In this document: piece by piece, positions 33,816 through 50,793 of the stretch
How positions within the stretch are numbered: position 1 is the stretch's first letter
How the letters are laid out: every line of letters begins with the position of its first letter
Assembly: GCA_965203325.1 (NCBI GenBank)
Contig: OZ241875.1
Coordinates: 1,568,001-1,632,000 of the forward strand
DNA from: a bacterium
GTDB taxonomy: Bacteria > UBA8248
DNA length: 64,000 bases
Direction of reading: 5' to 3'
Position numbers and translations under genes: made by a program
The notes under the pieces: generated by a model
What the model was told of the DNA's origin: nothing
What the model saw: the letters and a program-made list of their open reading frames with translations, nothing else
Databases searched by the model: none

Positions 33816-34311
33816 CGACTCTCCTCGCAATCTCATCAAGCAGTTCACGAATGCGCTCATCGATTCGGCCCTGGTTATCCTCGAAGGCGCGCGCGAACAT
33901 GCGGCGCGCCGGTATCCCGTGCCGTGCGATTGATCTGGCAACGAGGAAGGACACCCTCTCGATAGACCCATCGGGCGGCCCCAGTTTGTAGGCAACCCAC
34001 CGGTACAGGGACGTACCCTCCCTCCAGGGCGGTATTCCGCCACCCGCCCGGCGTCCGAATTCCACGTACCCGGCGTAAGGGACGCGCGAGGCGACCACGC
34101 CGCGCAACACGCTTGGGTTCTCTCCCTTGATTTCGGTGAAAATGCTGCCCCTGAGGTTCCCGCTCGCGCCGACGGGCGTTCGCGCCATCACCTCGCGCCT
34201 GAGTATTCCGGTGATTTCGGCCACCGCCTCGTGCGCGAGGAGTAAAACCCCCTCCCAAGCGATCTGTGGCACCTCCGGCAAGGCATCAAGCGTTACACTT
34301 CGACGAAACAT
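33808..34311 (-). CDS. HK97 gp10-like phage morphogenesis protein
   Basis: TPVGASGNLRGSI, YAGYVEFGR, VARSIARHG, MFARAF. Confidence 0.75.
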   Translation of the reverse strand: MFRRSVTLDALPEVPQIAWEGVLLLAHEAVAEITGILRREVMARTPVGASGNLRGSIFTEIKGENPSVLRGVVASRVPYAGYVEFGRRAGGGIPPWREGTSLYRWVAYKLGPPDGSIERVSFLVARSIARHGIPARRMFARAFEDNQGRIDERIRELLDEIARRVGG

Positions 34312-34328
34312 TCGCCTCTCCTCTTTGC

Positions 34329-35039: not shown

Positions 35040-35082
35040 TTCTCCATTTCTCCTTTGCCTCGCTCACCCGATGCGGGTGGTC

Positions 35083-35424
35083 TCAAGTCTTGAGCGTGAG
35101 CTTGGCCTCGAACGTGAACGAAGCCCCCTCCCCGCCGACGGACCATGCGAGCCTCAGCCAAGGGCCGATGTTCGCGAGCTTGACGAGGGTTTTTCCAACC
35201 GAGGTGATTTCCGCGGATTCGGTATGGACGAAAGCCGCTTCATCGCCCGCCGGACCGGTCTGCACTTCGAAATCAAGCACCGGCGCGACGCCCGATACCG
35301 ACGTCACGTCGATGAACAAGAGCGCCTCGGTGAAGCGGCTCACCTCGAACGCCGTACTGCCTCCCGCGGCGACGCGGGCCGCGGGAGGAGCGAGAACGAT
35401 GGTGTGGGTTCGCCTGTCGGACAT
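35083..35424 (-). CDS. Small beta-rich virion protein (possible head decoration)
   Basis: 113 aa directly after the capsid gene, RBS AGAGGAG; function inferred from position. Confidence 0.5.
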   Translation of the reverse strand: MSDRRTHTIVLAPPAARVAAGGSTAFEVSRFTEALLFIDVTSVSGVAPVLDFEVQTGPAGDEAAFVHTESAEITSVGKTLVKLANIGPWLRLAWSVGGEGASFTFEAKLTLKT

Positions 35425-35456
35425 GGCTTCTCCTCTGAAGGGCAAACGCCGCGCGA

Positions 35457-37631: not shown

Positions 37632-37684
37632 AATCTAGGACAAGGAGTCTCGAAGGCGGGCCGCGCAAATGCGGGGAAATGCGC
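37632..37684 (-). promoter_or_regulatory. Shared activator-type promoter of the head/tail operon (23-bp motif + N24 + TAGATT)
   Basis: 23-bp motif 37662-37684 identical to 50771-50793; -10-like TAGATT at 37637-37632. Confidence 0.72.
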
Positions 37685-37893
37685 ATTTGGCGTCTTTTTA
37701 TGCGGAATTTTGAATTTGCTAATTGAAAAATTTAAGAAAATGCGGTAAATTACGGAAAATTCTGGAGTTGCGGACGATGCGGGTGGTCCCGGCGTCTAAA
37801 AATTCTGGATACTTCGCCCGCCACCCAGTAAATGCCTGAATTCGCCGCGCCAAAAAGACCGCCCCTTGCACAACACGGACGAGGTTTGATCTC

Positions 37894-39189
37894 ATGTGGG
37901 GCGTTGCTCAACCGGCCTTGAATTTCATCCAGAACCTCTCCTGGAACCATATGCTCGACATCGGGATCATGTGGTTCCTCCTCTACCAGGTCTACATTCG
38001 CTTCAAGGGCACCCAGGCGATGCGCCTTCTCGTGCGCGTGTTCGCGGTGTGGCTCATCTATCTCGCCTCCCAGGCGGCGGGTCTGCACCTGACCTCGTTC
38101 CTGCTCTGGGCCATCTGGATCGCCGTGCTCATCCTGTTTCTCATCAATTTCCACGGAGAGATCCAGAAGATATTCTTTCAACTCAACCCGGTGCGCAGAA
38201 TCTCCATCCTGCTGCGCCGAGCGATGCGCATCCGCCTGCCGGACGAGAGCGTCGCCACCATCGCCGAATCCGCTTTTTCGCTCGCGGCCAAGCACATGGG
38301 CGCCATCATCGTCATGGAGCACCGGGATTTGACCGACTCCCTGCTGAGGAGCCCGGGCGAGGAGATCGAGGCGGACATCCAGCCGGCGCTTCTCGATTCC
38401 ATCTTCTTCAAGGGAGCGCCCTACCACGACGGCGCCGCCGTCGTTCGCGAGAACAAGGTCTCGCGCGTGGGATGCGTTTTGCCCCTTTCGGAGAACCGCG
38501 CCCTGCCGCCCGAGTTCGGAACGCGCCACAGGGCGGCGGTCGGCATCACGGAGCGATGCGACGCCCTGGCGATCGTCATCTCGGAAGAACGCGGAGAGGT
38601 CACCTGCGTGGAAGGCGGCAACGCAAAGGCGGTCCAAGACGAAGATGAACTCGCCTCGTGGCTCACTACGCGGCTGCGCGCGGCCCGCGAGGCGGGGCAG
38701 ACGAAAGGGCGCATCTCGTTCCGCCACGTTTTCGTGAACTGGCGGCCCAAGCTCGCCGCGCTGGCCGCCGTGATATTCCTCTGGTCGCTCGGGGGACAGG
38801 AGAACCAGAATCCGCAGAATTTCTTCCCGCAGCTCGAAAGCAAGGTGGAGGAGGAATTCCGGGTCCCGGTCCATTACTACAACGTTCCGAGCGGCGTCAC
38901 CCTTCCCGAAAATGCGGCGAAAGAAGTCAAAATCCGTATCAGGGGCAGGCGCGATCTCCTGAATTTCATCGACGCCACCCGTCTGCGCGTGAACGTGAAC
39001 CTCGCCAAAATGACGCCCGGCGCGCATTCGCGCACGCTGTCGGGCCGCGACATCGACCTGCCGAACGGCCTTGAGTTCCTGAGCGCGGAGCCCAAGGTCC
39101 TGGATTTGAATCTCGCCAAGGCGCCGTCGCCGGAGAAAATGACGAAATCGAGCGCCTCCACCGAAACGCCGGGGTCCTCGAACTTTTAA
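37894..39189 (+). CDS. cdaA: Diadenylate cyclase CdaA fused to a C-terminal YbbR (CdaR-like) domain
   Basis: 3 N-terminal TM helices, HDGA and GTRHRAA DAC motifs, SEERG; then NWRPKL..TM and a YbbR-like VPV..YNVP..VKIRIRG domain. Confidence 0.85.
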   Translation: MWGVAQPALNFIQNLSWNHMLDIGIMWFLLYQVYIRFKGTQAMRLLVRVFAVWLIYLASQAAGLHLTSFLLWAIWIAVLILFLINFHGEIQKIFFQLNPVRRISILLRRAMRIRLPDESVATIAESAFSLAAKHMGAIIVMEHRDLTDSLLRSPGEEIEADIQPALLDSIFFKGAPYHDGAAVVRENKVSRVGCVLPLSENRALPPEFGTRHRAAVGITERCDALAIVISEERGEVTCVEGGNAKAVQDEDELASWLTTRLRAAREAGQTKGRISFRHVFVNWRPKLAALAAVIFLWSLGGQENQNPQNFFPQLESKVEEEFRVPVHYYNVPSGVTLPENAAKEVKIRIRGRRDLLNFIDATRLRVNVNLAKMTPGAHSRTLSGRDIDLPNGLEFLSAEPKVLDLNLAKAPSPEKMTKSSASTETPGSSNF

Positions 39190-39259
39190 GGCCTCTCTTT
39201 TCAGTTGCTTGCGTTTTCGGCCACGCGAAAATTTGCTTTTTCAGAACAAAATACCGATA

Positions 39260-39625
39260 TTGAAGGAACTGGACTATCACCGCCGAGTCGTCCCAGGCGC
39301 CTTGACGATCGATGCGGACGAGCCATCTCAGGTGGTCCTCGGCGTCAGCCGAGTGAGGCGGTGAGGAGCCGACACAGGAAGCGGCTCCGGTCCGGTTTGC
39401 GGAGACCCTTCAACAGAAGGAGGATGCGATGATATCCACGATAAATCGCTTCAGCCGTGCGGAAACGCCATCCTCCCCGGCCCCATCGCATCAGCCGGGC
39501 GGGGAGGAAGACAAAGGCTGATGCGCTAATAAAGGCGTCACAACGCCTTTGCAGGGTGAGACGAGTTCTCACCCGAGAAAAAGCAACAAAAGAGAGCGGG
39601 ATGCAACGTCCCGCTCTTCTTTTTT
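39260..39625 (+). ncRNA. Candidate structured non-coding RNA or leader (family not recognised)
   Basis: Nested stems TTGAAGG/CCTTCAA, AACTGGACT/GGTCCGGTT, TCACCGCC/GGCGGTGA, further hairpins, ends in an intrinsic terminator. Confidence 0.4.
39593..39625 (+). terminator. Rho-independent terminator (likely bidirectional)
   Basis: AGAGCGGGA-loop-TCCCGCTCT followed by a T tract, A tract upstream. Confidence 0.75.
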
Positions 39626-39628
39626 GGG

Positions 39629-39823
39629 TTAGTCCCTAGCCTCTAGTTTACGCATCTCGATTTCGAGTTGCTGGAGCCTGTTCTTGATCATGTTGAAGTC
39701 GTACTCGAATCCCTCGGCGAGCAGCGTGAGTCCCTGGTAGAGCTGGTGCTTTTCCGGTTCTTCTTCCGCGTTCACCGAATCGAGCATCTCGGCGAAAACC
39801 TCTCTGGCATGATGAAAGCTCAA
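39629..39823 (-). CDS. Small hypothetical protein with coiled-coil C-terminus (64 aa)
   Basis: TTG start after GGGAGGG; helical, protein-like sequence. Confidence 0.55.
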   Translation of the reverse strand: MSFHHAREVFAEMLDSVNAEEEPEKHQLYQGLTLLAEGFEYDFNMIKNRLQQLEIEMRKLEARD

Positions 39824-39957
39824 AACCCTCCCCCCTTTTGGATGAGACCGCACAACAAGAATCAAGGAATCTTTTTGCGGGAAGAATCCCGCCCGCATCT
39901 TTGCTAGAATCCACCGCACCGACAAATAAACCACAACGTAATCGAGGAGTCATCTTC

Positions 39958-40455
39958 ATGCCGGAAAGACCGAACACGCCGCAAGTCATCCTCCGCCACA
40001 TCCAGGGCACGCAGCTTCAGATGTTCACCACAACGGGCAAGCACTCCTACGTGCTCGACGAGCCCGAAACCCGGGGCGGCACGGACCTCGCCGCCACGCC
40101 GTTCGAGTTCTTCATCGCAGGGCATGCGGGCTGAGGGCTCTACACGCTGCTGGGAGCAGCGAAGGCCAAGGGCATCCAGATCGACGACGTGGAAGTCCAT
40201 GCGGAGTTCAAGCGGAACATATCGCCAAAGTTTCACGCGGATTACCACGCGGACCCCGAGCGGAGAAAACTCTCCATCGGCGTCATCCGCACGAGCTATT
40301 ACATCCACGGCGACGTAACGGAAGAACAAAAGGCGGCGCTTCTGGATGAACTCGAAAACTGCCCCATCCACAACACGCTGATGACACCGCCCAAGCTCGA
40401 GGAGCGAATCGTCGTTCTGGAGAAGGACGAAACCGCGCCCAAAGAGATTTCATAA
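39958..40455 (+). CDS. OsmC-like selenoprotein (Sec at TGA 40132-40134)
   Basis: DEP..RGGTD...TPFE..AGHAG-UGA-GLYT... continues in frame to CPIHNTL; UGA sits at the conserved first Cys; hairpin just downstream. Confidence 0.82.
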
Positions 40456-40485
40456 CGACGGAGATATAGCCGCTTGCTAAGTAAG

Positions 40486-40723
40486 AGGTTGTTGAAAAAG
40501 TTCTCATCAGTCGGAATGACGGCGGGTGCAAACCCCTCGCATCGAACGCGCCGACAAGGACGGATCTGCGTTTCCGCCCCTATGGCCCGAAAGAACGAGG
40601 GCGGATTGTAGGGGCCGCATATATGCGGCCCATGACGGACGGCGAAAAAAGGCCGGGTCGCATGTATGCGACCCCTACATTCCCCTCCAATTCCCCTTTT
40701 CAGGGGGACTTTTTAAAAACCCC
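40486..40723. repeat. Composite repeat containing an inverted GTAG-REP pair
   Basis: GGTTGTTGAAAAAG end; GTAGGGGCCGCATATATGCGGCCC (40608) and GGGTCGCATGTATGCGACCCCTAC (40655); degenerate right end. Confidence 0.75.
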
Positions 40724-40810
40724 AACAATGCGAGCCTTGAACAAGGGAGAAGCTATTTTCGAATACGCCTGGACTTCGGCAGGAAAGGCAGACACCCCTC
40801 AAAATGGGTC

Positions 40811-41284
40811 CTAGTAGGAAATCTTGTCGTCCATCTGCGCCCACAGATTGAAGGATTCGAGCGCTTCATCTTTCAGGAGCCGCGTTGCTTCGAGTTTTCT
40901 TTCACTGGCAGGCAAGGCGATTTCCTTGTAGAGAAATTCATCGGAAAACCCGATCGCATCGGCCTCGACGATGGTGTTCCCGTAATACATGCGATCGATT
41001 CTCGCCCAGTAAATCGCGCTCAGGCACATGGGGCAAGGCTCGCAGCTCGTGTATATCTCACAGCCCGAAAGATCGAAATTTTTCAGTTTCGCGCTGGCCG
41101 CCCGTATGGCGAGCATCTCGGCGTGCGCGGTGGGGTCGCAAGAAGACGTCACCCGGTTCACGCCCTCGCCGATGATCTCGCCGTCCTTGACGACGACCGA
41201 CCCGAAAGGCCCGCCGAGTCCCTCCCGCACGTTTTGAGAAGCGAGCGATATCGCCCTTCTCATAAAAAATCCCCGAGTCGTCAT
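40811..41284 (-). CDS. guaD: Guanine deaminase-like nucleoside deaminase
   Basis: GGPFG, DPTAHAE, SCEPCPMCLSAIYWA, GFSDEFLY. Confidence 0.85.
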   Translation of the reverse strand: MTTRGFFMRRAISLASQNVREGLGGPFGSVVVKDGEIIGEGVNRVTSSCDPTAHAEMLAIRAASAKLKNFDLSGCEIYTSCEPCPMCLSAIYWARIDRMYYGNTIVEADAIGFSDEFLYKEIALPASERKLEATRLLKDEALESFNLWAQMDDKISY

Positions 41285-41490
41285 TTTCCCGTCTCCAGGT
41301 TGGTTCCACCTTTTCACCGCCGTTTCGTTCCGGTCGCGTAATCAGTGATTGGCGGCGTTCGCTTCATCATAGCTTGTTTTTGGAATGGATTGCATTTATT
41401 TTACAGGTTCTCCACTCATAGTCTCAAAAGTGCGGAGCCTGAAACGACCGAGATGCGATTCCGCGAAATTCGCAATCCAAAAAGGGACAG

Positions 41491-42396
41491 ATGATGAAAA
41501 TCGGATTTATCGGATTGGGAAACATGGGGGCAGGCATGGCAGCCAACCTCCAGAAGGCGGGTTATGAACTCGTCGTTCACGACATCGTCCGCGAGGCGGG
41601 GGCGGATCACATCGAGCGAGGCGCACTCTGGGCGGACACTCCCGAAGAAGTGGCCCGCGCGAGCGAGATCGTCTTCACCTCGCTGCCAGGCCCCAAGGAG
41701 GTGGAGAGCGTCGCCACGGGGCCGAACGGGATTCTTACAGGCATCAGCGCGGGGAAAGTCTACGTTGACTTGAGCACGGTATATCCCGCCGTCGTCCGGC
41801 GCATCCACGAGAAATTCGCGGAAGCCGGCGCACACATGCTCGAAGCCCCCGTGAGCGGCTCCACCATCGGCGCGAACACGGGCCGCTTGGCCATCATGGT
41901 GGGGGGTGAGAAGGAAGTATATGAACGCTGCAAGCCCCTCTTCGAAGCCTTCGGAGACCGGCCCTCCTACACGGGTCCCATCGGCACCGGCGCCGTGTGC
42001 AAGCTCGCACACAACTGCCTGAGCTACGGCATTCAAGCCATCGCGGCGGAATGCTACACCCTGGGCGTCAAGGCGGGGGCGGACCCCGCGGTCCTGGCCG
42101 AGGTGATCAAAAACAGCGCGGTGGGCCGGGCCGTGCACTTCAACTTTGTCTTCTACGAGACATTCTTCAAGGGGAAATTCGACGAGCCGCACTTTCCCAT
42201 CAAGGGCGCGGTAAAAGACGTCGGGCTCGCGCTTGAACTCGCCCGCGAACACGACGTACCCATGACGATAGGCAACATCGCCTACGGGGAGCTCATCTCA
42301 GGTCTCAACCGCGGCTGGGGGGATGATGACGCGAGGCGCGCCATGACGCTCCAGGAAGAACGCGCGGGCGGCGTGCAGGTGAGAATTTCGGAATAG
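41491..42396 (+). CDS. 3-hydroxyisobutyrate dehydrogenase-family NAD(P)-dependent oxidoreductase
   Basis: IGFIGLGNMG, APVSG, KLAHN, KDVGLA. Confidence 0.9.
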   Translation: MMKIGFIGLGNMGAGMAANLQKAGYELVVHDIVREAGADHIERGALWADTPEEVARASEIVFTSLPGPKEVESVATGPNGILTGISAGKVYVDLSTVYPAVVRRIHEKFAEAGAHMLEAPVSGSTIGANTGRLAIMVGGEKEVYERCKPLFEAFGDRPSYTGPIGTGAVCKLAHNCLSYGIQAIAAECYTLGVKAGADPAVLAEVIKNSAVGRAVHFNFVFYETFFKGKFDEPHFPIKGAVKDVGLALELAREHDVPMTIGNIAYGELISGLNRGWGDDDARRAMTLQEERAGGVQVRISE

Positions 42397-42408
42397 TAGA
42401 ATTTACGC

Positions 42409-43413
42409 ATGAAACACGGAATCGCCATGCTGCCCCCCGCGCCGGAGACCTACGCGCACTGGTGTAAGCTCTCGGAAGAAGCGGGCTTCGACGTCATCTG
42501 GGTGCCGGACTCGCAATCCCTCTACCGGGAGCTTTACGTCTCGTGCGCCATCTGCGCGGCGAACACCTCGCGCGTCCTGCTGGGCCCCAACGTCACCAAT
42601 CCGCTCACGCGCCACCCGGCGACGGCGGCGAGCGCCATCGCCACGGTGGATGAGTTCTCGGGCGGGCGCGCGCTGTTCGGAATCGCCACGGGGGACAGCG
42701 CCGTCCTGAATCTCGGCCTGCGCCCAAGCCGCGTGGACGAGGTGCGCGATTACGTTCTCGCCATGCGCGGAATGCTGGAAGAAGGCGCCGCGACCTACCG
42801 GGGAAAACCCTGCGCGCTCAACTGGCACAAAAAGCGGGTTCCTCTCTATATCGCCGCCGAAGGGCCGCGCACCATCCGCCTGGCGGGCGAGATAGCCGAC
42901 GGCGTCACCATCGGATGCGGCCTCACCCCCGAGGTGGTGGCGGATTCCCTCACCTGGCTGGAAGAGGGCGCCAGGAAATCGGGCCGTAAGGTGGGCGAGC
43001 TGGACGTCTGGTGGCTGGCGAAGGTGAACGTGCGCGAAGACGGCGAGCAAGCGCGCGAGGAGATCCGCATGGCCCTCGCCGCGAGCGCGCACCACGCCTT
43101 TCGCTTCACGACGGAGGGCAAGCGGATTCCCAAGGAACTCCTCGCCGCCGTCGAGACCCTGAAGCAAGGATACGCGTTTCACGAACACGAGATGGTGGAC
43201 AAGCAGACGAACGCGGAACTCGTGGACGGGCTCGGCCTTCGCGAATACCTGCTCGATCGCTTCGCCATCGCGGGCAACCCCGCCGAATGCAGAAAGCAGA
43301 TTGAGGCCATGAAGGCGACCGGCGTCGAGAACTTGAGGATCGCCGCCCACGTTTACGACAAGCCCGCCTTCATCCGGGCATGGGGCCGCGAAATTATCAG
43401 CCGGATCAAGTAA
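42409..43413 (+). CDS. LLM-class oxidoreductase (Mer-like, probably F420-dependent), paralog 1
   Basis: PDSQ, GPNVTNPLTRHP, GRALFGIATGDS, AAEGPRT..LAGEIADGV. Confidence 0.85.
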   Translation: MKHGIAMLPPAPETYAHWCKLSEEAGFDVIWVPDSQSLYRELYVSCAICAANTSRVLLGPNVTNPLTRHPATAASAIATVDEFSGGRALFGIATGDSAVLNLGLRPSRVDEVRDYVLAMRGMLEEGAATYRGKPCALNWHKKRVPLYIAAEGPRTIRLAGEIADGVTIGCGLTPEVVADSLTWLEEGARKSGRKVGELDVWWLAKVNVREDGEQAREEIRMALAASAHHAFRFTTEGKRIPKELLAAVETLKQGYAFHEHEMVDKQTNAELVDGLGLREYLLDRFAIAGNPAECRKQIEAMKATGVENLRIAAHVYDKPAFIRAWGREIISRIK

Positions 43414-43429
43414 CAAAGAGGATATTTGC

Positions 43430-44431
43430 ATGAGACACGGCATTTCATTCAGACCGCCCGATACGGATTCGTTCGCCCGCTGGTGCAAGTGCGCGGAAGA
43501 ACTCGGCTTCGATGCGGTATTCATCCCCGATACCCAGTCTCTTTACCGGGAGGTCTACGTCTCGTGCGCGATATGCGCGATGGAGACGAGCGAGATCATC
43601 TTCGGCCCATGCGTCACGAATCCCGTCACGCGGCACCCGGCGGTGGCCGCGAGCGCCATCGGCACCATCAGCGAGCTATCGGGCGGGCGCGCCTTCTGGG
43701 GGATCGCCACGGGTGACAGCGCGGTGCTGAACCTGGGTCTGAGGCCCGCCAAACTCGCCGAGATGCGCGAATACGTCCTCGCCGTGCGGGGCATGCTCGA
43801 AGAAGGAAGCGCGCAGTTCAAAGGGAACGACGCCCGGTTGAGCTGGCACAAATCCCACGTGCCCATCCACATCGCCGCCGAAGGCCCCAAGACGCTGCGC
43901 CTCGCGGGCGAGGTGGCCGACGGCGTCATCATCGGAACCGGCCTCATCCCCGAAGTCATCGCGGACACGCTCTCCTTCATCGACGAGGGCGCCCAAAAGT
44001 CCGGCCGAAGGGTGGAGGACCTGGACCTCTGGTGGCTGGTGGACGCCCACGTAGACGGGGACGGCGAACGGGCGCGGGAGGACATCCGCACCGCCCTCGC
44101 CGCAAGCGCGCATCATTCCTTCGCCTTCACGATGGAGAACAAGCGCATCCCCCAAGAGCTCGAATCCGGCATCCGCGCGCTGAGGGACGGGTACCAGACT
44201 TCGGAGCACGGCTTCATGGATAAATCCAACAATGCGGCGCTCGTCGATGAGTACGGCTTGAGAGACTACCTGGCCGATAGATTCGCCATCGTCGGCACGC
44301 CCGAAGAATGCCGGAAAAGACTCGAAGACCTCGAAAACCTGGGTGTCAGGGGGCTCCGCATCAACAACAACCTGCCCGACAGGACAGTCTTCATGAACGC
44401 CTGGGCGAAGGAGGTGCGGGGGATTGGGTGA
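43430..44431 (+). CDS. LLM-class oxidoreductase (Mer-like, probably F420-dependent), paralog 2
   Basis: Same motifs as the adjacent paralog (VTNPVTRHP, GIATGDSAVLNLG, AAEGPKT). Confidence 0.85.
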   Translation: MRHGISFRPPDTDSFARWCKCAEELGFDAVFIPDTQSLYREVYVSCAICAMETSEIIFGPCVTNPVTRHPAVAASAIGTISELSGGRAFWGIATGDSAVLNLGLRPAKLAEMREYVLAVRGMLEEGSAQFKGNDARLSWHKSHVPIHIAAEGPKTLRLAGEVADGVIIGTGLIPEVIADTLSFIDEGAQKSGRRVEDLDLWWLVDAHVDGDGERAREDIRTALAASAHHSFAFTMENKRIPQELESGIRALRDGYQTSEHGFMDKSNNAALVDEYGLRDYLADRFAIVGTPEECRKRLEDLENLGVRGLRINNNLPDRTVFMNAWAKEVRGIG

Positions 44432-44490
44432 TTTGCGACACCAAAGCGATGCAACAAAGCAAACCTGAGTTGTTTTCTATAGCAAATTGC

Positions 44491-44961
44491 CTATATCGGC
44501 AGAACCCCTTGGTTTGAACGTGGTTCATGAATAGGAAAACCTGTCAACGCCTCAAATTTTGAGAGCCCGGCATCATATGTATGGAACTCTTTCGCTTCTG
44601 CATAGATTGCAGTTGCCAAATGCACGGCATCCGCAGGCTTCAAGCTCCACCCACGAGAGATGCCTTCTCTCATTAGACGCCTCGCATCTCGTTGCAAGCG
44701 TTCATGTACTTCCACCAACGTAATGGTACGTCGATCCATCCACATCGAATCTATTTTCGCCTCAAGCGCGGGGTCCAGTGCTTGCTTATCCTTTTCTATC
44801 GCGCCATACGCCACCTCGGTAATAGACCACATGGATGTCACAATACGACACTCGTCTTTACGCGACCTTGAAAGCAAATCGTCTAAGGTGGGTAACCTAG
44901 TCTCTATGCCGTTGATATAGGAGAGAAAAACATCGGCATCCCAATAGTACGCATCAGCCAT
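44491..44961 (-). CDS. PIN-domain (VapC-like) protein
   Basis: YYWDADVF, SITEV, LKPADAVHLATA, FHTYD acidic PIN motifs. Confidence 0.82.
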   Translation of the reverse strand: MADAYYWDADVFLSYINGIETRLPTLDDLLSRSRKDECRIVTSMWSITEVAYGAIEKDKQALDPALEAKIDSMWMDRRTITLVEVHERLQRDARRLMREGISRGWSLKPADAVHLATAIYAEAKEFHTYDAGLSKFEALTGFPIHEPRSNQGVLPI

Positions 44962-45724
44962 CACGCAACCGCATAATAGTAACTTCCGGCAATTCTGCGT
45001 CCGGCTTCAACGGCAAAATTGCGCGCGCTTGCGTGTAGTCTCCTTCCTCCATAATTGGTGTAATTTTACTGACTTGCCGCACTGCTATAGGATGTCCATC
45101 CGTCGGATCGCGACTCACCAATCCTTCCACGATAGCGTGTTTTCCCCAAACTTCTCTCATGAGGTTTTCCTGGCCGGATTGCAAGTAACACGATACAGGT
45201 CGGTCATTCAGAGCGTCATAGAGAGTGAATCGCAACATGTTTCGCTTTGTTAATGTCTGAACTTCTCCCTCTACGGCGCCAAAGGCCACTGCAATAACAT
45301 TTTCTGGCAGATTCATCATCTTGTCCGCTACTTTCGGCTTTCGAGTTGGAGGGTTATGTAAGATGACCGTTTCCTCTTGTGTCTCAAATCGGACTCGTTT
45401 GACGCCGTTTCCGACCAAGCGCCCAAGTTTCATGGCTGGAGCGGAGACTTTCCGCCCACGATTAATCCGGACATTTTCTTTAAGTGCCCTGCCAACATCA
45501 TTGTATCCCCGAACAACCCGCTCGACCCGTTCCGATTGAGGGCTATATCCTTTAATAGTCGCTAATGCGCTCCCAGGCTGAAGATCTTCGATCCTCCACT
45601 CGATACCGCCTCCCTCCTCTACCGTCAGCGCACCGATGAGGCTGTCCAACGACTTTACCGCCGTTGCAAACGTCTCAAGAGTGACATCCCCCTCCAACAT
45701 CAGCGTAATTGTGTCAGAAGCCAT
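44954..45724 (-). CDS. Hypothetical protein coupled to the PIN gene (possible antitoxin partner)
   Basis: Overlaps the PIN start; AT-richer than flanks; C-terminal OB-like segment inferred. Confidence 0.65.
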   Translation of the reverse strand: MASDTITLMLEGDVTLETFATAVKSLDSLIGALTVEEGGGIEWRIEDLQPGSALATIKGYSPQSERVERVVRGYNDVGRALKENVRINRGRKVSAPAMKLGRLVGNGVKRVRFETQEETVILHNPPTRKPKVADKMMNLPENVIAVAFGAVEGEVQTLTKRNMLRFTLYDALNDRPVSCYLQSGQENLMREVWGKHAIVEGLVSRDPTDGHPIAVRQVSKITPIMEEGDYTQARAILPLKPDAELPEVTIMRLRDG

Positions 45725-45966
45725 GACTTGCCCTTTGGAGTCTTTGGGAGGATCCACAATTGGTAGATATCTTCAAACAAGACATCACCATGAATCAACC
45801 TAAGGCCTCCATTTGGGAGTGTCAATCACTTGCGCAGCACGCTCTGGAACACATCCAGCCGAAAAACTCCCCCTTCCCCTCTCCCCGCCGCTTCGGTTAG
45901 AATGGCTTGAAATGATCGAAACGAGTGAATTCGACCTCCCCGAAAAACCTCGTACAGGAGGATGAC

Positions 45967-46521
45967 ATGAGCGAAATGACGAAGGAAAAGGAAAAGATTC
46001 TCGTCTATGAACCCGTGGCGGAGGCGCCGGGCGCGAGCGCCGTCATGGCCGCGCGGCCCGAGAGCCTAAACGGCAAGAGCGTGGGCCTCATCAACAACAC
46101 CAAGGATTTCACGGATGAGATTTTCGACGTGATGGGCGCCGCGCTCGAAGAGCAGTTCCCCGGTGTGCGCGTCGTGCGCTACCGGAAAGAATCCGTGAGC
46201 GGCGCATCGCCCGCCTTGATGGAGCAGGTGGAAGGAGAGTGCGACGCCGTTGTTTCCGCACTCGGCGACTGAGGGTCATGCACGTCGTGGAGTATCCACG
46301 ACAGCGTCGCTTTAGAGAAAAGAGGGCTGGCCACGGTCACGGTCGTCACCGACGCCTTCGAGACCTACGCCAAGCAACTCACCAAGCTGCACAAGATGAG
46401 CGGGCTTCCCCTCGTCACGCTGCCCCACCCCATCGCGGGCAGAAAGCGCGAGGAGGTGGACGAGATGTCGGCGAGAGCGAGCGCGCATCTGGCGTCCGCC
46501 CTCACGCAGGCGAGCGCTTGA
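45967..46521 (+). CDS. UGSC-family selenoprotein (Sec at TGA 46270-46272)
   Basis: CDAVVSALGD-UGA-GSCTSWSIHD..LEKRG..T...PHPI in one frame; strong RBS; hairpin GTCGTGG-AGTAT-CCACGAC downstream. Confidence 0.88.
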
Positions 46522-46528
46522 TATCGGC

Positions 46529-47629
46529 ATGGACGCGCCAGAGCCCGCCCGCCAGATAGCGCTCGACCAAGACGCAGGCGCGATATACGAGCACTTCTAC
46601 GAGGAGGGCTGGACGGACGGGCTGCCCGTCATCCCGCCGACCGAGGAGCGCGTCGCGGAAACCTTGCGCTTCACGGACTATGCGCCGCATGACGTCATCG
46701 CCAACGTCCCGCCCAGAAACGCCCCGGCCACGGTCGAGGTCATCGCCATCAACGCCGTGATGGCGGGCTGCAGACCCGAATACCTGCCTGTTTTGATCGC
46801 CGCAGTGCAAGCCATGACGGAACCCGCCTACAACCTCTACGGCCGTCAGACGACGACGCATCCGGGCGCGCACCTGATGATCGTCCACGGGCCGGTTCGA
46901 AACGAACTCGAGGTCAACTGCCGCCAGAACGTCTTCGGCCAGGGCTGGCGCGCCAACGCGACGCTGGGCCGCGCGGTGAGGCTCCTGATGATGAACGCAG
47001 GCGGCGGCATCCCCGGCGTGACGGACATGGCCACCCACGGGCATCCGGGGAAATACGCCTACACCATCGGCGAGGACGAGGAGGGCAGCCCCTGGCCCGC
47101 CTTTCATGTGGATAGAGGCTTCGCGCCAGATACTTCCGCCGTCACCATGCTCTGCGCCGAGTCGCCCCACAACGTGAACGACCTGGTGAGCAAGACGCCC
47201 CACAAATACCTGGGCACGGCGGCTTCGGCCATGAGCCATTTAGGTGCGAACGGCGTCTACCGGAGCGGGCTTCCGAGCGAGCAAATGCTCGTCCTGACGG
47301 CAGAGGCCGCCACGTGGCTTTCGGATCAGGGGTGGTCGAAGGCCGACGTTTCGCAATTCATCTTCGAGAACGCGCGCCAGCCGATTCGCCTGATGCGCGA
47401 CCGGGGCGGCTTCGACATGACGCCACTCGCCCCTTTCGTGAATCTCGAAGAAGACGAGGACATGGCCCCCATCGTCCCGAGGCCCGAAGACATCCTCATC
47501 GTCATAGCGGGCGGCCACGGCCGCCACATGCAGGCCGTCTTGACGGCGAGCTACAACCTGAGCGTCACCAGGGCGATCACCAGAAAAGACGGAACGCCGA
47601 TTGGATCGGTAAGGGAGTTTGTGGAGTAG
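46529..47629 (+). CDS. Conserved protein typically paired with or fused to UGSC (seleno)proteins
   Basis: GWTDGLPVIPPTEERV, AINAVMAGCRPEY, RANATLGRA, GHPGKY. Confidence 0.75.
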   Translation: MDAPEPARQIALDQDAGAIYEHFYEEGWTDGLPVIPPTEERVAETLRFTDYAPHDVIANVPPRNAPATVEVIAINAVMAGCRPEYLPVLIAAVQAMTEPAYNLYGRQTTTHPGAHLMIVHGPVRNELEVNCRQNVFGQGWRANATLGRAVRLLMMNAGGGIPGVTDMATHGHPGKYAYTIGEDEEGSPWPAFHVDRGFAPDTSAVTMLCAESPHNVNDLVSKTPHKYLGTAASAMSHLGANGVYRSGLPSEQMLVLTAEAATWLSDQGWSKADVSQFIFENARQPIRLMRDRGGFDMTPLAPFVNLEEDEDMAPIVPRPEDILIVIAGGHGRHMQAVLTASYNLSVTRAITRKDGTPIGSVREFVE

Positions 47630-47637
47630 AGAGCCCC

Positions 47638-48993
47638 CTACCCCTCCAGGTTCATGCCGAACTGCCCCGCGAGGTGGGTGATGAGCTTGCCTGCGGCGTC
47701 ATCGCTCATCCAGCCGCGCGCGGTGGCCGTTTCGAGCGCCGTGCTAACGCGCAAAAGCGCCTCGGACATCTTCTCGGTGTCGCGCACGGAGATATCCGGC
47801 AGAACGGGCGAGACGCCCGAGCGCAGCGCCTCCTCGGGCAGCGCGCCCGCGCGATGGGCTTCTTCGAGCTGCTTCTCAGCCATAGCTTGCAAGATATGGC
47901 GCACGGTGCGCTGGCGGCGCGTCATCTTCTTCAAGGTGGGCTGATCCATCGACTCGGCCGACGCGCGGTTCACGTCCTCCCCCTGGGCGAACCAGTGGGA
48001 AGGAACGCCTACGCCGCCGAGCAGCAGGCCCCGCATCATCTTGGCGACCCCCTGCGCGCCGGACTCGCCTCCTTTCAAGTCGGGCGAGACGGCCCGCCAC
48101 TCCTCTTTTTCGTTGTGAACGCGCACGCTCGAGGGCTTGGGCGCGACGCCGTTCTCGGCGAGCCACTCGGCTATCTTGTCGGGGCCGGCGCCTTTCAAGG
48201 TGACGTCGTAGATGAAGCTGTTCTGCAGGCGCGCGCGCTCCACGGCATCGAAGATGAAGCGCTCATAGGTATCTATCCAGTCGATGGCGGCGAGCAAGTC
48301 CGAAGCCCCGCGCGCGGCGTCGCTCGCCTTGTTGATCTGGAACAGGAACGCCTCTCCGTCCGTGAAGCGCTCGCGCTCCCGCCGGGCGGAGGCGCTCAGA
48401 TAACCGCGCGGGTCGCCGCCCAAGACCGTCTTGATTCGCTTGCCCTTGCGCGCCGCACCGCCCGGCTCCCGGGCGCGCAGGACGACCCCTATCGGCAGGG
48501 CGCAGTTGTCCGGGTCCGTCACCACCTCTTCGATCAGGCGGGGGCTGACGTAGCCCAGCCGGACGCGCCCCTCGAAGCGCGAGACGGCGACGGGCAGCAA
48601 GAGTTCGCCGAATATGCCGAGTTCAGAGACCAGCCGCTCGAAGCGGATGTCCATCTGGTTCACGGGGTCGGCCCAGAACGCCTTCACGGCGTTTAATGCG
48701 CGCTCATCCTCCCCGTGCCAGCTCACCCCCTCGCCCACGACGTGATCCGTCACGATCTCGATGAGGCGCTGGCCCATGAGGTTCGTGAGCCATAATTCAT
48801 ACGCTAAAGCCTGCATGCGCGCGTGGGTGTAGGGAGACACCCCGCTCCGCCCCTCGCCGAGGGGCCGCCAGATTTTCTCGTCCGGATCGATCGCCGCGCT
48901 CGTTCGCCCGGTACGCTGCGCGGCCTCCCCTTTTCTCTTGAGTTCCGTCTTCCGCCCGGGAACCTTCACCCTCTTTGCACTCTCCATTCTCAT
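47638..48993 (-). CDS. Putative phage portal protein
   Basis: 451 aa after the terminase; ELGIFGEL, RGASDL, GVPSHWF...NRASA..M..PT.K...RQ; synteny. Confidence 0.72.
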   Translation of the reverse strand: MRMESAKRVKVPGRKTELKRKGEAAQRTGRTSAAIDPDEKIWRPLGEGRSGVSPYTHARMQALAYELWLTNLMGQRLIEIVTDHVVGEGVSWHGEDERALNAVKAFWADPVNQMDIRFERLVSELGIFGELLLPVAVSRFEGRVRLGYVSPRLIEEVVTDPDNCALPIGVVLRAREPGGAARKGKRIKTVLGGDPRGYLSASARRERERFTDGEAFLFQINKASDAARGASDLLAAIDWIDTYERFIFDAVERARLQNSFIYDVTLKGAGPDKIAEWLAENGVAPKPSSVRVHNEKEEWRAVSPDLKGGESGAQGVAKMMRGLLLGGVGVPSHWFAQGEDVNRASAESMDQPTLKKMTRRQRTVRHILQAMAEKQLEEAHRAGALPEEALRSGVSPVLPDISVRDTEKMSEALLRVSTALETATARGWMSDDAAGKLITHLAGQFGMNLEG

Positions 48994-49637
48994 CTCCTCT
49001 TGAGCATCCGTTTGTTAAAAGCCTGCGGCGTCACCGTTCCCCCGGCGATGGGGGCCAGCATGCCCTCGCTCTGCGCCAGGGATTCGGCCAGCCGCGCATA
49101 GGCGCAGGCGAAGCCGAAGTGGTTCTCGTTTCGCTCATACGCCAGCACCGTCTCCCCGGTGGAGCGGATGCGCGGCCTTTTCCTCAAATTCATCAGGTGG
49201 CGCTCCACCTCGGCGAGTAGCGCCTCCTCCCCGGTGTCCCTGGGACTCGGCAGCAGGACCCGCCCGGCCCCCTCGTGAAACTCCTCCACGAGGTGATCGA
49301 GCAGGTCCTCTCGGTTCATCCGCACGTGGCGGCGCTCGACGCCCAGGAACGAGACGTCCCTGGTCTGCATCTCCCCCTCGGTGTGCCGCCAGATGAAGCC
49401 GCCCTCGGGGTTCAGGTCGTAGACCGCGCGCGCTGCCTGGGTGTGGGGGCCGCCGTCTATGACGAACGCTTCCACCCCGAGACCCGAGAACACGGCGCGG
49501 CACCGCTCGATGAGGCGCTCTATCGGCGGCGCCTCGAAATAAATCCACCTGGCGGGCCGGCCCTCCTCGCGCTCGCGCACCGCGAGGGCGCAGCGGTCGC
49601 CCGTATCGATTCCACAGAAGCGATAGTTCGCGCTCAT
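48990..49637 (-). CDS. Terminase large subunit, nuclease domain (separate gene)
   Basis: FCGIDTG RNase H-like motif, VIDG, ENHFGFACAY; ATGA overlaps on both sides. Confidence 0.65.
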   Translation of the reverse strand: MSANYRFCGIDTGDRCALAVREREEGRPARWIYFEAPPIERLIERCRAVFSGLGVEAFVIDGGPHTQAARAVYDLNPEGGFIWRHTEGEMQTRDVSFLGVERRHVRMNREDLLDHLVEEFHEGAGRVLLPSPRDTGEEALLAEVERHLMNLRKRPRIRSTGETVLAYERNENHFGFACAYARLAESLAQSEGMLAPIAGGTVTPQAFNKRMLKRR

Positions 49638-50692
49638 GCCGGGACCTCCGCCAGGCGATACGGCGCGGCGTCACGCAGCTTCCTGAGCAGTTCAGGAGAG
49701 ATAGGCCGGGTATCGCCCGCATCGGGGATGGCGAGGGCCGAGCAGCGAAAGCGCGCCTTCTCACTCGGAAGAGAGGCAGCGGCCCATTTCGCCACGACCC
49801 GGTCGAGCCGAACCGCGCCGACCGCAAGCTGGGAGAGGCGATAGCTCCTGTGCCGGGGTCTCACGCACGCGGCTTTCCACCGCCCTGCTCCCTTCTCGAG
49901 CGCGCCGCCGCATTCCGGGCAGACGAGGCCATTTGCACACAGTATCTCCGGCCAGTGCTCCTCCAGCACGCTCTCGGTGCGGCACGTCGGGCATCTCACA
50001 TGCCAGCGCCTGCGGTCCCCCGCCTCGTACATGGCGTGAATGCCCGCACCGGGAGTTCTGCCGACAGCCAGGTTGAGCGTAAGAGCCAGGGGCGAGGCGT
50101 CGATGCGGTCGTTCGACCATTTGAGGTTGTCCGGCGGAAGGTCGTCCACCTCGTCGCGGACAAGCACGTCGAGCGGGATGGATATGGCGTTGCCGATGTC
50201 CCTGAGACCCAGGATGTAGAGAAAACGCGAGCCCCCGGGGCCGGGGAACTCCTTGAGACCCTTGGGGGATGCGCCACGGTACTTTCCGTCGCGCATGATC
50301 GAGGCGATACTTTCGTTTCGAATCACCGGGCGCACGCGCGTCTGGTCGAAGCGGTCCGCGAAATCCTGATCGGGCAGAAAATAGCCCACGTTCAGGCGGT
50401 GGACGATGACGCAATAGAGCGCAAAACCGATGGCGAGGGTGGTCATGCCCACCTGCGCGCCCTTCAGGACGCTGATGGTCCGATCGGGCGCCCGGCAATT
50501 TATAATCTCATCGAGCGCGGCGGCGATCTCCAGAAGCGCCTCTCTGCCTTTGAAGGTGAACGCGCCGGTGTCGGTCGACATCTCGCCCGTCAGAAACCGG
50601 GCCAGCCCGCGCGCCTCGCCCGGAAATCGCGGCGCGCCGCCGGCGGCGAGGTCCATACCGGGCACCCGGATGATTTTCAGGGACTTTCGCAC
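49634..50692 (-). CDS. Terminase large subunit, GpA-like ATPase domain
   Basis: VLKGAQVGMT (GpA-type P-loop), YFLP, VLVRDEVD (Walker B), GDRRRWHVRCPTC..CPECG zinc ribbon; GTG start. Confidence 0.8.
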   Translation of the reverse strand: MRKSLKIIRVPGMDLAAGGAPRFPGEARGLARFLTGEMSTDTGAFTFKGREALLEIAAALDEIINCRAPDRTISVLKGAQVGMTTLAIGFALYCVIVHRLNVGYFLPDQDFADRFDQTRVRPVIRNESIASIMRDGKYRGASPKGLKEFPGPGGSRFLYILGLRDIGNAISIPLDVLVRDEVDDLPPDNLKWSNDRIDASPLALTLNLAVGRTPGAGIHAMYEAGDRRRWHVRCPTCRTESVLEEHWPEILCANGLVCPECGGALEKGAGRWKAACVRPRHRSYRLSQLAVGAVRLDRVVAKWAAASLPSEKARFRCSALAIPDAGDTRPISPELLRKLRDAAPYRLAEVPA

Positions 50693-50740
50693 CGGGACTC
50701 CTCCCTCCCAAGGATGCCGCGCGCATCCTCACGAGGGAGG

Positions 50741-50793
50741 AATATAGGGGATGGGGCCTGTGAGCCATGACGCGCAAATGCGGGGAAATGCGC
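50741..50793 (-). promoter_or_regulatory. Shared activator-type promoter of the terminase/portal operon (23-bp motif + N24 + TATATT)
   Basis: 23-bp motif 50771-50793 identical to 37662-37684; -10-like TATATT at 50746-50741 at identical spacing. Confidence 0.72.

Follow-up and report, generated by a model that had tools for sequence, protein, structure and literature searches.

The tandem repeat found upstream of two phage-like operons probably marks a special class of promoters that have a -10 hexamer and lack a -35 box, with a predicted activator on the repeats, a core regulon resembling a gene transfer agent (GTA) and a promoter module amplified on seemingly mobile units. The window, which denotes the whole 64,000-nucleotide stretch of DNA analysed, contained an identical plus-strand 23-mer at 37662-37684 and 50771-50793. 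No other copy was found in the window, even at up to 3 mismatches, and 100 dinucleotide-preserving shuffles of the window yielded no match. Read on the minus strand, the 23-mer is GCGCATTTCCCCGCATTTGCGCG, a tandem CGCATTT with a 10-bp period, that is, a direct repeat without a dyad. The motif unit is CGCATTTSCC, arranged head-to-tail in two and sometimes three copies, and it is G+C-rich outside the ATTT cores. The initial annotation had claimed two identical 23-bp copies, each a fixed 24 nt from a -10-like hexamer and with differing spacers between them. Exact matching bore out both copies; the distance was exactly 24 nt at TAGATT (37637-37632) and at TATATT (50746-50741), and the two spacers were unrelated in sequence.

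The first promoter (P1) consists of the motif at 37662..37684, a 24-nt spacer at 37638..37661 and the -10 hexamer TAGATT at 37632..37637, all on the minus strand. The spacer contains no -35-like hexamer; at the 17-bp position it reads cccgcc, which matches TTGACA at 1 of 6 positions. P1 precedes a minus-strand operon at 31331..37535, which was assigned by Pfam (PF25209, PF04883, PF18906) and PHROGs (29592/133/4523, 5, 290). According to a rough ORF-based caller, its genes encode, in order, a protease-capsid fusion (692 aa, 35457-37535), proteins of 113 and 236 aa, a Neck1/gp10-like protein (167 aa), a 192-aa protein, a tail-tube-like protein (379 aa, 32069-33208) and proteins of 130 and 68 aa; gene positions outside the annotated operons likewise come from a crude ORF caller. 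A motif-like sequence occupied the same place in 19 of 20 congener loci, of which 17 matched a relaxed tandem pattern and two (G015 and G019) were recognized by eye, with substitutions; G018 had another sequence there. The -10 hexamer was TAGATT, TAGTTT or TAAATT in 20/20 congener loci, and the spacer was constant in length and divergent in sequence. Upstream of P1 on the minus strand lies a conserved A+T-rich stretch (37694..37745) with degenerate repeats inside, namely CGCATAA at 37704-37698, which precedes the first P1 repeat by 21 nt, and CGCATTT at 37744-37738, the latter being the extra half-site that had been reported near 37738. By eye, this stretch was visibly kept in most of the 20 congener loci, the exceptions being G018, G015, G001 and G006, and it may be part of a divergent dacA promoter.

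The second promoter (P2) carries the same 23-mer at 50771..50793 by exact match and the -10 hexamer TATATT at 50741..50746, which was supported by its sequence and by conservation in 21 genomes (minus strand). A motif or near-motif was present upstream of the terminase orthologue in 21/21 genomes, with sequence conservation starting at the motif, and CTATATTCCT at the -10 position was kept in 21/21 loci, preceded by C in 19 of them. The leader at 50693..50740 (minus strand) contains a hairpin in which CCUCCC, just past the -10 hexamer, pairs with the ribosome-binding site GGGAGG. Its RNAalifold score was -14.65 for 21 sequences, and one pair (alignment columns 16/26) was U-A in 17, C-G in 2 and U-G in 2 sequences. 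The downstream operon (47638..50692, minus strand) encodes the ATPase part (352 aa, 49634-50692) and the nuclease part (215 aa, 48990-49637) of the large terminase and, as its third gene, the portal (449 aa, 47638-48987). These assignments were based on Pfam PF05876 and on PHROGs 675 for the two parts of the terminase and 10963 for the portal.

The initial annotation had predicted that the motif would also be found before other virion or lysis genes. The genome scan found it before a small-terminase, an endolysin-holin and a tail-tip-like operon, so that five operons in all are headed by the motif: P1 and P2 in the window, P3 and P4 3-5 kb past the window end, and P5 460 kb off. P3 comprises a 110-aa winged-helix protein and a small terminase that is Mu gp27-like (PF11985), and P4 comprises an endolysin and a holin, the latter matching PF11351 (GTA_holin_3TM). 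In P5, the neighbours that a language model gave for a 403-aa protein belong to viral, TipJ-like and Phage-tail_3 clusters (0.95-0.98), and this neighbour list is the single source of the tail-tip-like label. The P5 proteins had no Pfam matches, and the PHROG search returned two unannotated matches, for the G000 127-aa protein and for the G015 orthologue of gene 1. Tape-measure and Phage-tail_3 families (PF10145, PF06791, PF13550) had no match in the genome. Promoter conservation extended to these operons, with the lysis promoter (P4) kept in 18/19 loci, the small-terminase promoter (P3) in 15/19 loci within reach and the P5 promoter in 21/21 loci. The proposed check in relatives thus came out in favour of all five promoters, whose spacers drift at fixed length.

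Conservation was then considered for the gene set as a whole. In as many as 21 genomes of this genus, the orthologous operons kept motif, -10 hexamer and spacer length, and the spacer sequence and upstream flank drifted. Capsid, terminase and P5 gene 1 were each present in 20/22 congeners and the endolysin in 18/22. The reading frames were intact in most congeners, but in G005, G015 and G018 P5 gene 1 fell into two matches. For capsid and terminase there was one match per genome, at 73-96% identity, and the two lay 11-16 kb apart in every genome that had both on one contig; in this genome, the genes between the operons are host genes. G008 and G009 had neither capsid, terminase and P5 gene 1 nor a strict motif, and at up to 3 mismatches G009 had 13 motif-like matches against 3 in the control. 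At the same threshold, G015 and G019 had only 4 and 9 matches, and these included the capsid, terminase, lysis and P5 promoters. At family level, the capsid gene was found in 33/41 genomes. In G043, which belongs to another genus, CGAAATT-N3-CGAAATT stood at the same distance from the capsid gene's -10 hexamer and occurred 11 times genome-wide, against 0 in the reversed control. As is characteristic of a GTA, the head, packaging, tail and lysis genes are conserved, intact and syntenic, and no integrase, replication or repressor modules adjoin them. The set therefore looks like a domesticated, GTA-like element of the Nitrospinota, as judged by gene content and conservation rather than by particles. 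The conserved core of the regulon would be these five separate operons of a domesticated head-tail-lysis set, presumably inherited vertically in this genus.

Coupling between the motif and the -10 hexamer was evident beyond the five operons. Among the strict sites of this genome, A at +47 occurred in 36/54 and T at +51 in 37/54. The pattern nAnnnT started at +46 in 62/123 site clusters and at +45 to +47 in 78/123, a share that rose to 71/91 among clusters scoring at least 24 bits; about 45/123 clusters had no -10 hexamer at +45 to +47, so that roughly 60% of the genome's ~123 sites are coupled. When independent downstream sequence classes were counted instead, nAnnnT started at +46 in 23/68 and at +45 to +47 in 34/68, with no other offset exceeding 4. 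Strict motifs with both A(+47) and T(+51) were frequent in the congeners G006 (28/33), G020 (33/40), G010 (35/55) and G007 (20/32), against about 4% by chance; the exception was G001, in which just 3/24 strict motifs showed the coupling. At the -35 position, TTGACA at 17-bp spacing was matched at 1, 0, 3, 0 and 2 of 6 positions in P1-P5. The 16S rRNA promoter of this genome reads TTGACA-17 nt-TATATT, with an A/T-rich upstream tract and no CGCATTT motif. Since this promoter has a perfect -35 box, ordinary promoters are in use here and the motif promoters form a special class. Judged by sequence, the motif is a genuine promoter element of promoters without a -35 box. Its most plausible role would be that of an upstream element of a special sigma-70-type promoter class with a -10 hexamer and no -35. 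Transcription starting about 7 nt past the -10 hexamer would put the repeats at about -58 to -37, centred near -48.

The motif was far more abundant in the genome than expected. There were 38 occurrences of GCATTT-N4-GCATTT where base composition predicts 0.17, and a weight-matrix scan at 12 bits or more gave 152 matches against 2 in a reversed-sequence control. These correspond to ~123 site clusters in the 4.39-Mb genome, ~118 of them beyond the five operons. Most sites lie on a multicopy unit family of ~300-450 bp, both ends of which carry the motif, in direct orientation ~335 bp apart in ~20 copies and inverted ~300 bp apart in ~12 copies. Besides the five operons, nearly all promoter-type sites are on these units and not before ordinary host genes, and where host genes adjoin a site, that site is mostly the far-end motif cluster of a unit, which has no promoter. 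Many of the predicted unit promoters form convergent pairs over a conserved A+T-rich core. One unit was absent from the orthologous place in 4 congeners, in each of which its parts matched ~50 other places. Elements with a tyrosine-recombinase pair were inserted in units, starting at the A+T-rich core ~180 nt past the motif. Among the sites with annotated neighbours, none had a transposase gene next to it. In multiplicity, in positions that vary between relatives and in terminal repeats, the units resemble miniature mobile repeats, unlike the five operon promoters, which are unique sequence at orthologous positions. From these sequence comparisons the unit family seems mobile. With 20-80 strict motif copies in most congeners, the promoter module would have been multiplied on the unit family in most species of the genus. 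The proposed regulon of dispersed modules was thus upheld in that the motif links all five operons, but not in its extent, given ~118 further clusters, mostly on multicopy units. The initial annotation had also named frequent occurrence within an unrelated repeat family as grounds against its reading. Taken to the letter, such frequency was found; the repeats, however, carry the same motif-to-(-10) layout and so are not unrelated to the motif.

The site was then compared with those of known systems. Mu C and Mor are small phage activators bound just upstream of, and overlapping, the -35 region of sigma-70 promoters that have a -10 but a poor -35, at a dyad-symmetric site centred near -43.5. 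The promoters described here are alike in having a sigma-70-type -10 hexamer with a poor or absent -35 (0-3/6 in P1-P5 vs 6/6 in the rRNA promoter), and the small terminase is likewise Mu-like, but their site, centred near -48, consists of direct repeats. The Mor/C family (Pfam PF08765) had no match in the whole genome in six frames at E up to 0.1, and the Ogr/Delta zinc-finger family (PF04606) had no genome match at E up to 0.1. The analogy to Mu C/Mor drawn by the initial annotation therefore failed as a class membership: neither a Mor/C nor an Ogr/Delta protein was found, and the site has no dyad. Late operons controlled by P2 Ogr or P4 Delta share an activator site at about -55, a partial dyad that satellites copy; the fixed distance of the site is alike, and the zinc-finger activator is absent here. 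Pho boxes and the other tandem sites of OmpR/PhoB-type response regulators are direct repeats placed head to tail, with a period of 10-11 bp, and take the place of the -35 in sigma-70 promoters. Pho boxes lie ~10 bp upstream of the -10, whereas the repeats here end 24-29 nt before it. Mobile promoters are miniature mobile repeats that carry a promoter; the module is similar in standing before unrelated sequences at dozens of places that vary between relatives, and differs in that it is also fixed, at orthologous positions, ahead of five conserved operons that serve a single functional system.

The comparison was extended to GTA activators. GafA is a direct activator of a domesticated phage set with dispersed loci, the head-tail cluster and the lysis genes lying apart, and we know of no shared cis motif for it. 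For the Rhodobacter capsulatus GTA, the available text of the reports names the omega subunit of RNA polymerase as the route by which GafA acts (PMC6363796, PMC9638019). A precedent for the proposed activator comes from Caulobacter crescentus, where, as described in the available text, GafY(Z) joins the main cluster and ~18 scattered accessory loci under one activator, in a tightly off regulon that spans lysis; GafY binds ~20 promoters at the main and accessory GTA loci and, where the -35 is degenerate, makes contact with domains 3-4 of sigma-70 (PMC11150451). By the same text, GafY sits far upstream and needs IHF-induced bending, and no consensus GafY motif could be derived, whereas the site here abuts the -35 position and is a sharp tandem repeat (PMC11150451). 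Compared with the Caulobacter GTA as far as that text describes it, the present set belongs to a different phylum, has unrelated structural genes (capsid PF25209, Mu gp27-like small terminase) and has its site amplified on multicopy units too.

With regard to the binding protein, no regulator gene was found in or beside the five operons, nor at the locus in the other genus. Within the regulon, the 110-aa winged-helix protein alone has a DNA-binding fold. It is an unlikely binder, being absent from G001, where the promoters keep the motif, and having helix 3 and the wing almost invariant in G043 despite the differing motif there. A sequence-specific activator would most likely dock on the repeats side by side on one helix face, and the bound activator might then recruit RNA polymerase, standing in for the absent -35 contact.

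A general host regulator, for example a direct-repeat response regulator, could act at the site instead, the phage-derived operons having been wired in with no dedicated activator, much as CtrA controls RcGTA. Winged-helix response regulators typically bind direct repeats that recur every 10 bp, and this fits such a regulator, as do the ~123 clusters here, the 20-80 strict copies in most congeners and the lack of a regulator encoded in or beside the five operons or at the other-genus locus. We nevertheless regard it as unlikely: outside the five operons, promoter-type sites lie nearly all on units and not at ordinary host genes, G015 and G019 have almost only phage-like promoters, and G008 and G009, which are without phage-like genes, are also without the strict motif, although G009 keeps 13 loose matches against 3 in the control. 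Another reading takes the motif to be primarily a mobile-element end, recognized by a transposase or recombinase, with the five promoters being fossil ends with an inward promoter. At the five operons, however, conservation across the genus is confined to motif, spacing and -10, with no further likeness to units, which is the signature of selection for promoter function; the -10 coupling recurs in 34/68 unrelated downstream classes, the recombinase elements begin not at the motif but ~180 nt past it, in the A+T-rich core, and no transposase gene was seen adjoining sites with annotated neighbours. These observations make it quite improbable, even though the units bear the motif at both ends, direct (~20 copies) or inverted (~12), one unit is absent at the orthologous place in 4 congeners with parts at ~50 places each, and paired-tyrosine-recombinase elements sit in units. 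Because most sites are on units and ~45/123 clusters lack a -10, binding by a recombination or transposition protein is nonetheless conceivable.

RNA polymerase might also read the motif directly, either as an unusual UP element contacted by its alpha C-terminal domains or through an alternative sigma factor whose upstream element lies atypically far off. UP elements are A/T-rich tracts at about -59 to -38 of strong housekeeping promoters; the ATTT cores near -54 and -44 fall close to the distal and proximal UP subsites, and the -10 hexamers are sigma-70-like. The position fits, but the motif is G+C-rich outside these cores and the rRNA promoter has an ordinary A/T-rich tract and a perfect -35 without the motif, so membership among UP elements was rejected. 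Furthermore, RNA polymerase is conserved, whereas the motif differs from genus to genus, as CGAAATT in G043 shows, and the 29-nt gap from the second repeat to the -10 matches no known sigma spacing. Direct reading by the polymerase accordingly appears highly improbable.

Returning to a special -10-only promoter class with a predicted activator, a bolder form of this reading is possible, if doubtful: a family-wide, undescribed Nitrospinota GTA, whose five operons are fired by one predicted activator through the tandem operator, the operator having been copied in one genus onto mobile units. In that case, switching on the particle genes would set off ~60 extra promoters as well, which might serve the activator as a built-in decoy or threshold, or might be hitch-hikers on particle production. 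The Nitrospinota comprise nitrite oxidisers and sponge symbionts, and the host is a marine bacterium of this phylum. To our knowledge, experimentally established GTAs are few, namely the alphaproteobacterial RcGTA-like elements and BaGTA, with one case each in Desulfovibrio, Brachyspira and Methanococcus, and we found no published description of a GTA-like element in the Nitrospinota. A conserved, dispersed and co-regulated head-tail-lysis set among them would mean that domestication took place independently in a further phylum. The 17-20-bp operator with its fixed geometry would provide a handle for activator fishing, heterologous reporters and regulon prediction per species. It is unusual for a lysis-linked operator to be amplified on dozens of units that seem mobile, and this bears on how regulons grow and on how mobile DNA may tap host or phage switches.

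The 23-mer CGCGCAAATGCGGGGAAATGCGC was found in the window at 37662-37684 and 50771-50793; no third copy was detected there even at up to three mismatches, and 0 of 100 dinucleotide-preserving shuffles matched it. On the minus strand it reads GCGCATTTCCCCGCATTTGCGCG and is followed, after exactly 24 nt, by a -10-like hexamer, TAGATT (37637-37632) or TATATT (50746-50741). The two 24-nt spacers were unrelated in sequence, and an extra half-site, CGCATTT, was located at 37744-37738. The window search thus confirmed as written what the initial annotation had observed, namely the two 23-mers, their 24-nt spacing to a -10 and the extra half-site. In the source genome, a single contig of 4,392,711 bp in which the window covers positions 1,568,001-1,632,000, the exact 23-mer occurred only at these two sites, and 4, 12, 31, 59 and 101 matches were obtained at one, two, three, four and five mismatches, respectively. 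The pattern GCATTT-N4-GCATTT was present in 38 copies versus 0.17 expected from base composition, and CGCAWTTSCCCGCAWTT in 54 copies. A scan with a weight matrix built from the matches returned 152 positions of at least 12 bits, compared with 2 in the reversed sequence. These positions merged into 123 site clusters, 112 of which were intergenic according to a crude ORF-based gene call (3803 genes) that is rough outside the annotated operons. The motif consensus was CGCATTT(C/G)CCCGCATTTGC(C/G)G, which consists of two, sometimes three, head-to-tail 10-bp units.

With the C of the first CGCATTT set as position 0, the -10-like signal fell at +46 to +51: among the 54 strict sites, T was present at +46 in 30, A at +47 in 36, and T at +51 in 37. 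As many sites have homologous downstream sequence in common, the 123 clusters were merged into 68 classes with mutually unrelated downstream sequence. The pattern nAnnnT started at +46 in 23 classes and at +45 to +47 in 34, and every other offset from +32 to +62 showed it in at most 4 of the 68. When all clusters were counted, it was found at +46 in 62/123 and at +45 to +47 in 78/123; the latter figure was 71/91 for clusters of at least 24 bits. The -10 hexamers varied among classes (TATCGT, CAGAAT, TATGAT, TATGCT, GAGAAT, TAGATT and TATATT), and what the classes had in common was the motif, its fixed phase and distance, and the A/T skeleton of the -10. The motif promoters have no -35 element. 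At 17-bp spacing, the promoters of the five phage-derived operons described below (P1-P5) matched TTGACA at 1, 0, 3, 0 and 2 of 6 positions, in that order. Upstream of the 16S rRNA gene in this genome stand TTGACA and TATATT, separated by 17 nt, together with an A/T-rich upstream tract and no motif; the organism therefore has sigma-70 promoters of the ordinary kind, and the motif sets a special class apart. With a transcription start about 7 nt past the -10, the repeats would cover about -58 to -37. The single-repeat pattern CGCAWTT-N29-TAnnnT gave 37 matches in the genome, of which 32 lay inside tandem sites and 5 elsewhere (2 in the control), and no additional operons were revealed.

Five operons of phage origin were found behind the motif. 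P1 (window 37684, minus strand) precedes genes for a 692-aa protease-capsid fusion (PF25209), proteins of 113 and 236 aa, a Neck1/gp10-like protein, a 192-aa protein, a 379-aa tail-tube-like protein (PF18906), and proteins of 130 and 68 aa. P2 (window 50793, minus strand) precedes the ATPase part (352 aa) and the nuclease part (215 aa) of the large terminase and the portal (449 aa). The motif had been predicted to stand before other virion or lysis genes, and the genome scan yielded two such operons. P3 (genome 1,634,836, about 2.8 kb past the window end, -10 TATATT) drives a 110-aa protein and a Mu gp27-like small terminase (PF11985), and P4 (genome 1,636,905, -10 TAGAAT, three phased repeats) drives a 53-aa membrane protein, a DUF1508 protein, a phage lysozyme and a PF11351 holin (GTA_holin_3TM). 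P5 was traced through the few motif copies in species without the multicopy repeat units that carry most copies elsewhere. It lies 460 kb from the window on the plus strand (locus L153:173-5184, genome 1106772-1111783), with its promoter at 1,106,772, a -10 of TATATT, and six genes of about 359, 177, 403, 313, 231 and 127 aa. None of the six had a Pfam match, and the only PHROG match was between the 127-aa protein and an unannotated family. The nearest language-model neighbours of the 403-aa protein were viral clusters, with Phage-tail_3 and TipJ-like host-specificity clusters at 0.95-0.98. The assignment of P5 to the tail, made from these neighbours, is a lead only; tape-measure and Phage-tail_3 families had no match in the genome. 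Genes 2 and 3 of P5 have an LDGS..LDGSLLLGEG-like segment in common.

Host genes are interspersed between these operons: diadenylate cyclase, the F420 biosynthesis genes CofD, CofC and F420 ligase, luciferase-like oxidoreductases, an ammonium transporter, adenylate cyclase and ABC transporter parts. The two large terminase genes (window 48990-50692, minus strand) share a 4-nt overlap. In 15/21 genomes the ATPase part has an open frame of 357-365 aa, so the terminase split looks conserved rather than a recent break. Between the P1 and P2 operons, the G+C content of window 44000-46000 was 50-54% versus about 63% around it; this stretch encodes a PIN-domain protein (44491-44964) and a 267-aa protein without annotation (44954-45757) and probably represents a small insertion of foreign DNA. 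A weak HicA-like ORF (105 aa) and a 120-aa partner, located downstream of the small terminase (L031:510-1200, genome 1632510-1633200, minus strand), may represent a toxin-antitoxin pair lodged in that operon.

The initial annotation had proposed checking conservation in relatives, and phylogenetic footprints were observed at all five operon promoters across the other species of the genus (congeners). Among the 22 congeners, which are related, so that the counts are not independent events, the capsid gene was found in 20 (single copy each, 77-96% identity, open frame), the terminase ATPase in 20, the endolysin in 18, the first P5 gene in 20 and the 110-aa gene in 19. Two genomes, G008 (99% complete) and G009 (95% complete), lacked all five of these genes, and the strict motif was absent from both. 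In every genome with both genes on one contig, capsid and terminase kept their relative order at a distance of 11-16 kb, and therefore the split arrangement is old. At the capsid promoter, a motif-like sequence was present in 19/20 congener loci and the -10 in 20/20; G018 had another sequence in place of the motif, and G015 and G019 carried one or two substitutions in it. Visual comparison of the alignments indicated that the spacer of this promoter diverged in sequence and kept its 24-nt length. Conservation at the terminase promoter started at the motif in 21/21 genomes. The lysis promoter was kept in 18/19 loci (the G021 locus is truncated where its contig ends), the small-terminase promoter in 15/19 within the fetched flank, and the P5 promoter in 21/21, including G001, G015 and G019. 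The strict motif occurred in 19/22 congeners, 18 of which had 21-79 copies, and in 0/18 genomes outside the genus; the reversed-pattern control gave 0 everywhere. The capsid gene extends further, to 33/41 family genomes and 38/51 class genomes, and the repeat at its promoter varies among genera. In G043, a member of another genus, CGAAATTGCACGAAATT stands at the same distance from TACATT (L112, G043:C17:8551-9000), with CGAAATT-N3-CGAAATT instead of CGCATTT-N3-CGCATTT. This variant was present in 11 copies in its genome (control 0) and in at most 2 in any other family genome. In G046, G055 and G024, a single CG(C/A)A(A/T)TT was found 36 nt before a -10-like hexamer. Judged from these sites, the capsid promoter in other genera looks related, not identical. 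Homologues came from sources named 'Nitrospinota bacterium' and 'Nitrospinaceae bacterium', and sponge metagenomes were among the DNA datasets containing the source sequence. For window 31300-41000, the listed datasets included no RNA run.

Conservation at P2 also included the leader (window 50693-50740, minus strand), in which CCUCCC directly past the -10 can pair with the ribosome-binding site GGGAGG. The hairpin was conserved across 21 genomes, in which one of its base pairs shows a compensatory change, and may provide a second, translational control layer. On the other side of the P2 motif the species differed: many had a yajQ 3' end there, and the source genome had a truncated yajQ. The region upstream of the motif has thus been rearranged, and the promoter has remained in place. 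In the source genome, the yajQ-like start (MAIPAPSFDFVS…; window 50800-50951, minus strand) ends at the motif.

Most of the motif copies belong to multicopy units. When the 500 nt downstream of each site were clustered, we obtained families of 49 and 18 sites, four small families and 45 singletons, and the operon promoters were among the singletons. The units are about 300-450 bp long and are sited in intergenic gaps of 400-1400 bp; one example (L001:133-575, genome 867633-868075) has about 57-65 further copies genome-wide, e.g., L005 and L006. Their conserved core is an A+T-rich stretch of about 65 nt (…GATAAATTCACGGGGTTTTTCGATAAATT…) that occurs 57-65 times; the genome as a whole has 60% G+C. 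In about 20 copies, one-sided motif promoters pointed toward the core and a promoter-less cluster of motif repeats lay about 335 nt downstream; about 12 others had a convergent pair of promoters, spaced about 300 bp, that pointed toward the core from both sides. No Rfam family was detected in 12 unit loci at E <=0.1, and none of the 56 tRNA/tmRNA genes (ARAGORN) lay within 700 nt downstream of a site. A small protein gene in the core was considered, as unit families A, C and F contain an ATG in frame with it, along with a ribosome-binding site; a stop at most 24 nt upstream in frame in about 20/57 cores, together with radical substitutions, made its coding doubtful. The integrases found near some motifs were likewise considered as motif-regulated cargo. 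They belong to a multicopy element of two tyrosine recombinases in tandem (394 and 389 aa; Arm-DNA-bind_3 and Phage_integrase) and an approximately 950-aa gene on the opposite strand, with copies at genome 1219785-1226000, 971505-978000, 3830738-3838000 and 740121-735400 (loci L014, L015 and L025 contain the first integrase genes). Four copies were at least 90% identical and about ten were about 75% identical. The cargo interpretation was rejected because the element begins at the unit core, about 180 nt beyond the motif, where the four close copies are inserted in the A+T-rich sequence.

The units differed among lineages. Unit L001 was absent from the orthologous place in four congeners, where the flanking gene was 83-95% identical, and pieces of it matched about 50 other places in each of the four. 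A different multicopy family stood behind the same motif in G006. Strict motifs with A(+47) and T(+51) numbered 28/33 in G006, 33/40 in G020, 35/55 in G010 and 20/32 in G007, and only 3/24 in G001. In G015 and G019, 4 and 9 motif matches were found at up to three mismatches, with almost none beyond the operon promoters. From these comparisons, we read the system as five operons forming a conserved core regulon, whose promoter module was later multiplied, in a lineage-specific manner, on units that would be mobile or turn over fast.

In the proposed mechanism, a sequence-specific protein would bind the repeats head to tail and recruit RNA polymerase with the housekeeping sigma factor. No member of the Mor/C and Ogr/Delta families was found in the genome. 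The 110-aa protein that heads the small-terminase operon (L031:2308-2640, genome 1634308-1634640, minus strand) was examined as the activator. Its model was a confident winged helix (pLDDT 92.5), and its best Foldseek matches were TubR, MarR and PadR chains at E of about 1e-3; a profile search against solved structures gave only E 0.7-1.5. It has no Pfam family and was found in 29/41 family genomes; all its other occurrences were in assemblies of Nitrospinota type. Its absence from G001, where the motif is kept, and its near invariance where the motif differs spoke against this role, leaving it a weak candidate that might just as well serve as an accessory in packaging. In another genus (G048), no regulator was seen in the equivalent 40-kb locus, where only receiver-domain and TPR proteins were detected.

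The initial annotation had compared these sites with Mu C/Mor-activated promoters. The likeness holds for the promoter logic, a -10 without a -35 and a putative activator adjoining the -35 position, and fails for membership, as the genome encodes no Mor family protein and the site consists of direct repeats instead of a dyad. Nothing on a gene transfer agent (GTA) or the motif in Nitrospinota was found in the literature, as judged from search listings. Among other GTAs, the Rhodobacter system reportedly uses GafA, and the Bartonella BaGTA is said to follow an antitermination scheme. The closest functional precedent is the Caulobacter GTA. In that system, GafY binds the promoters of the main cluster, gafYZ and about 18 accessory loci; where the -35 is degenerate, it contacts domains 3-4 of sigma-70, acting from a distant upstream position together with IHF (PMC11150451). 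The earlier proposal of promoters that define a regulon with a dedicated activator was supported in its promoter and regulon parts, which now cover five operons instead of two; the 'dedicated' and 'Mu-like' parts were not supported as stated. Collectively, the genes and their conservation, known here from sequence alone, point to a predicted activator-dependent regulon of a domesticated phage, and the unusual feature of this regulon is that its operator has been amplified on multicopy units.
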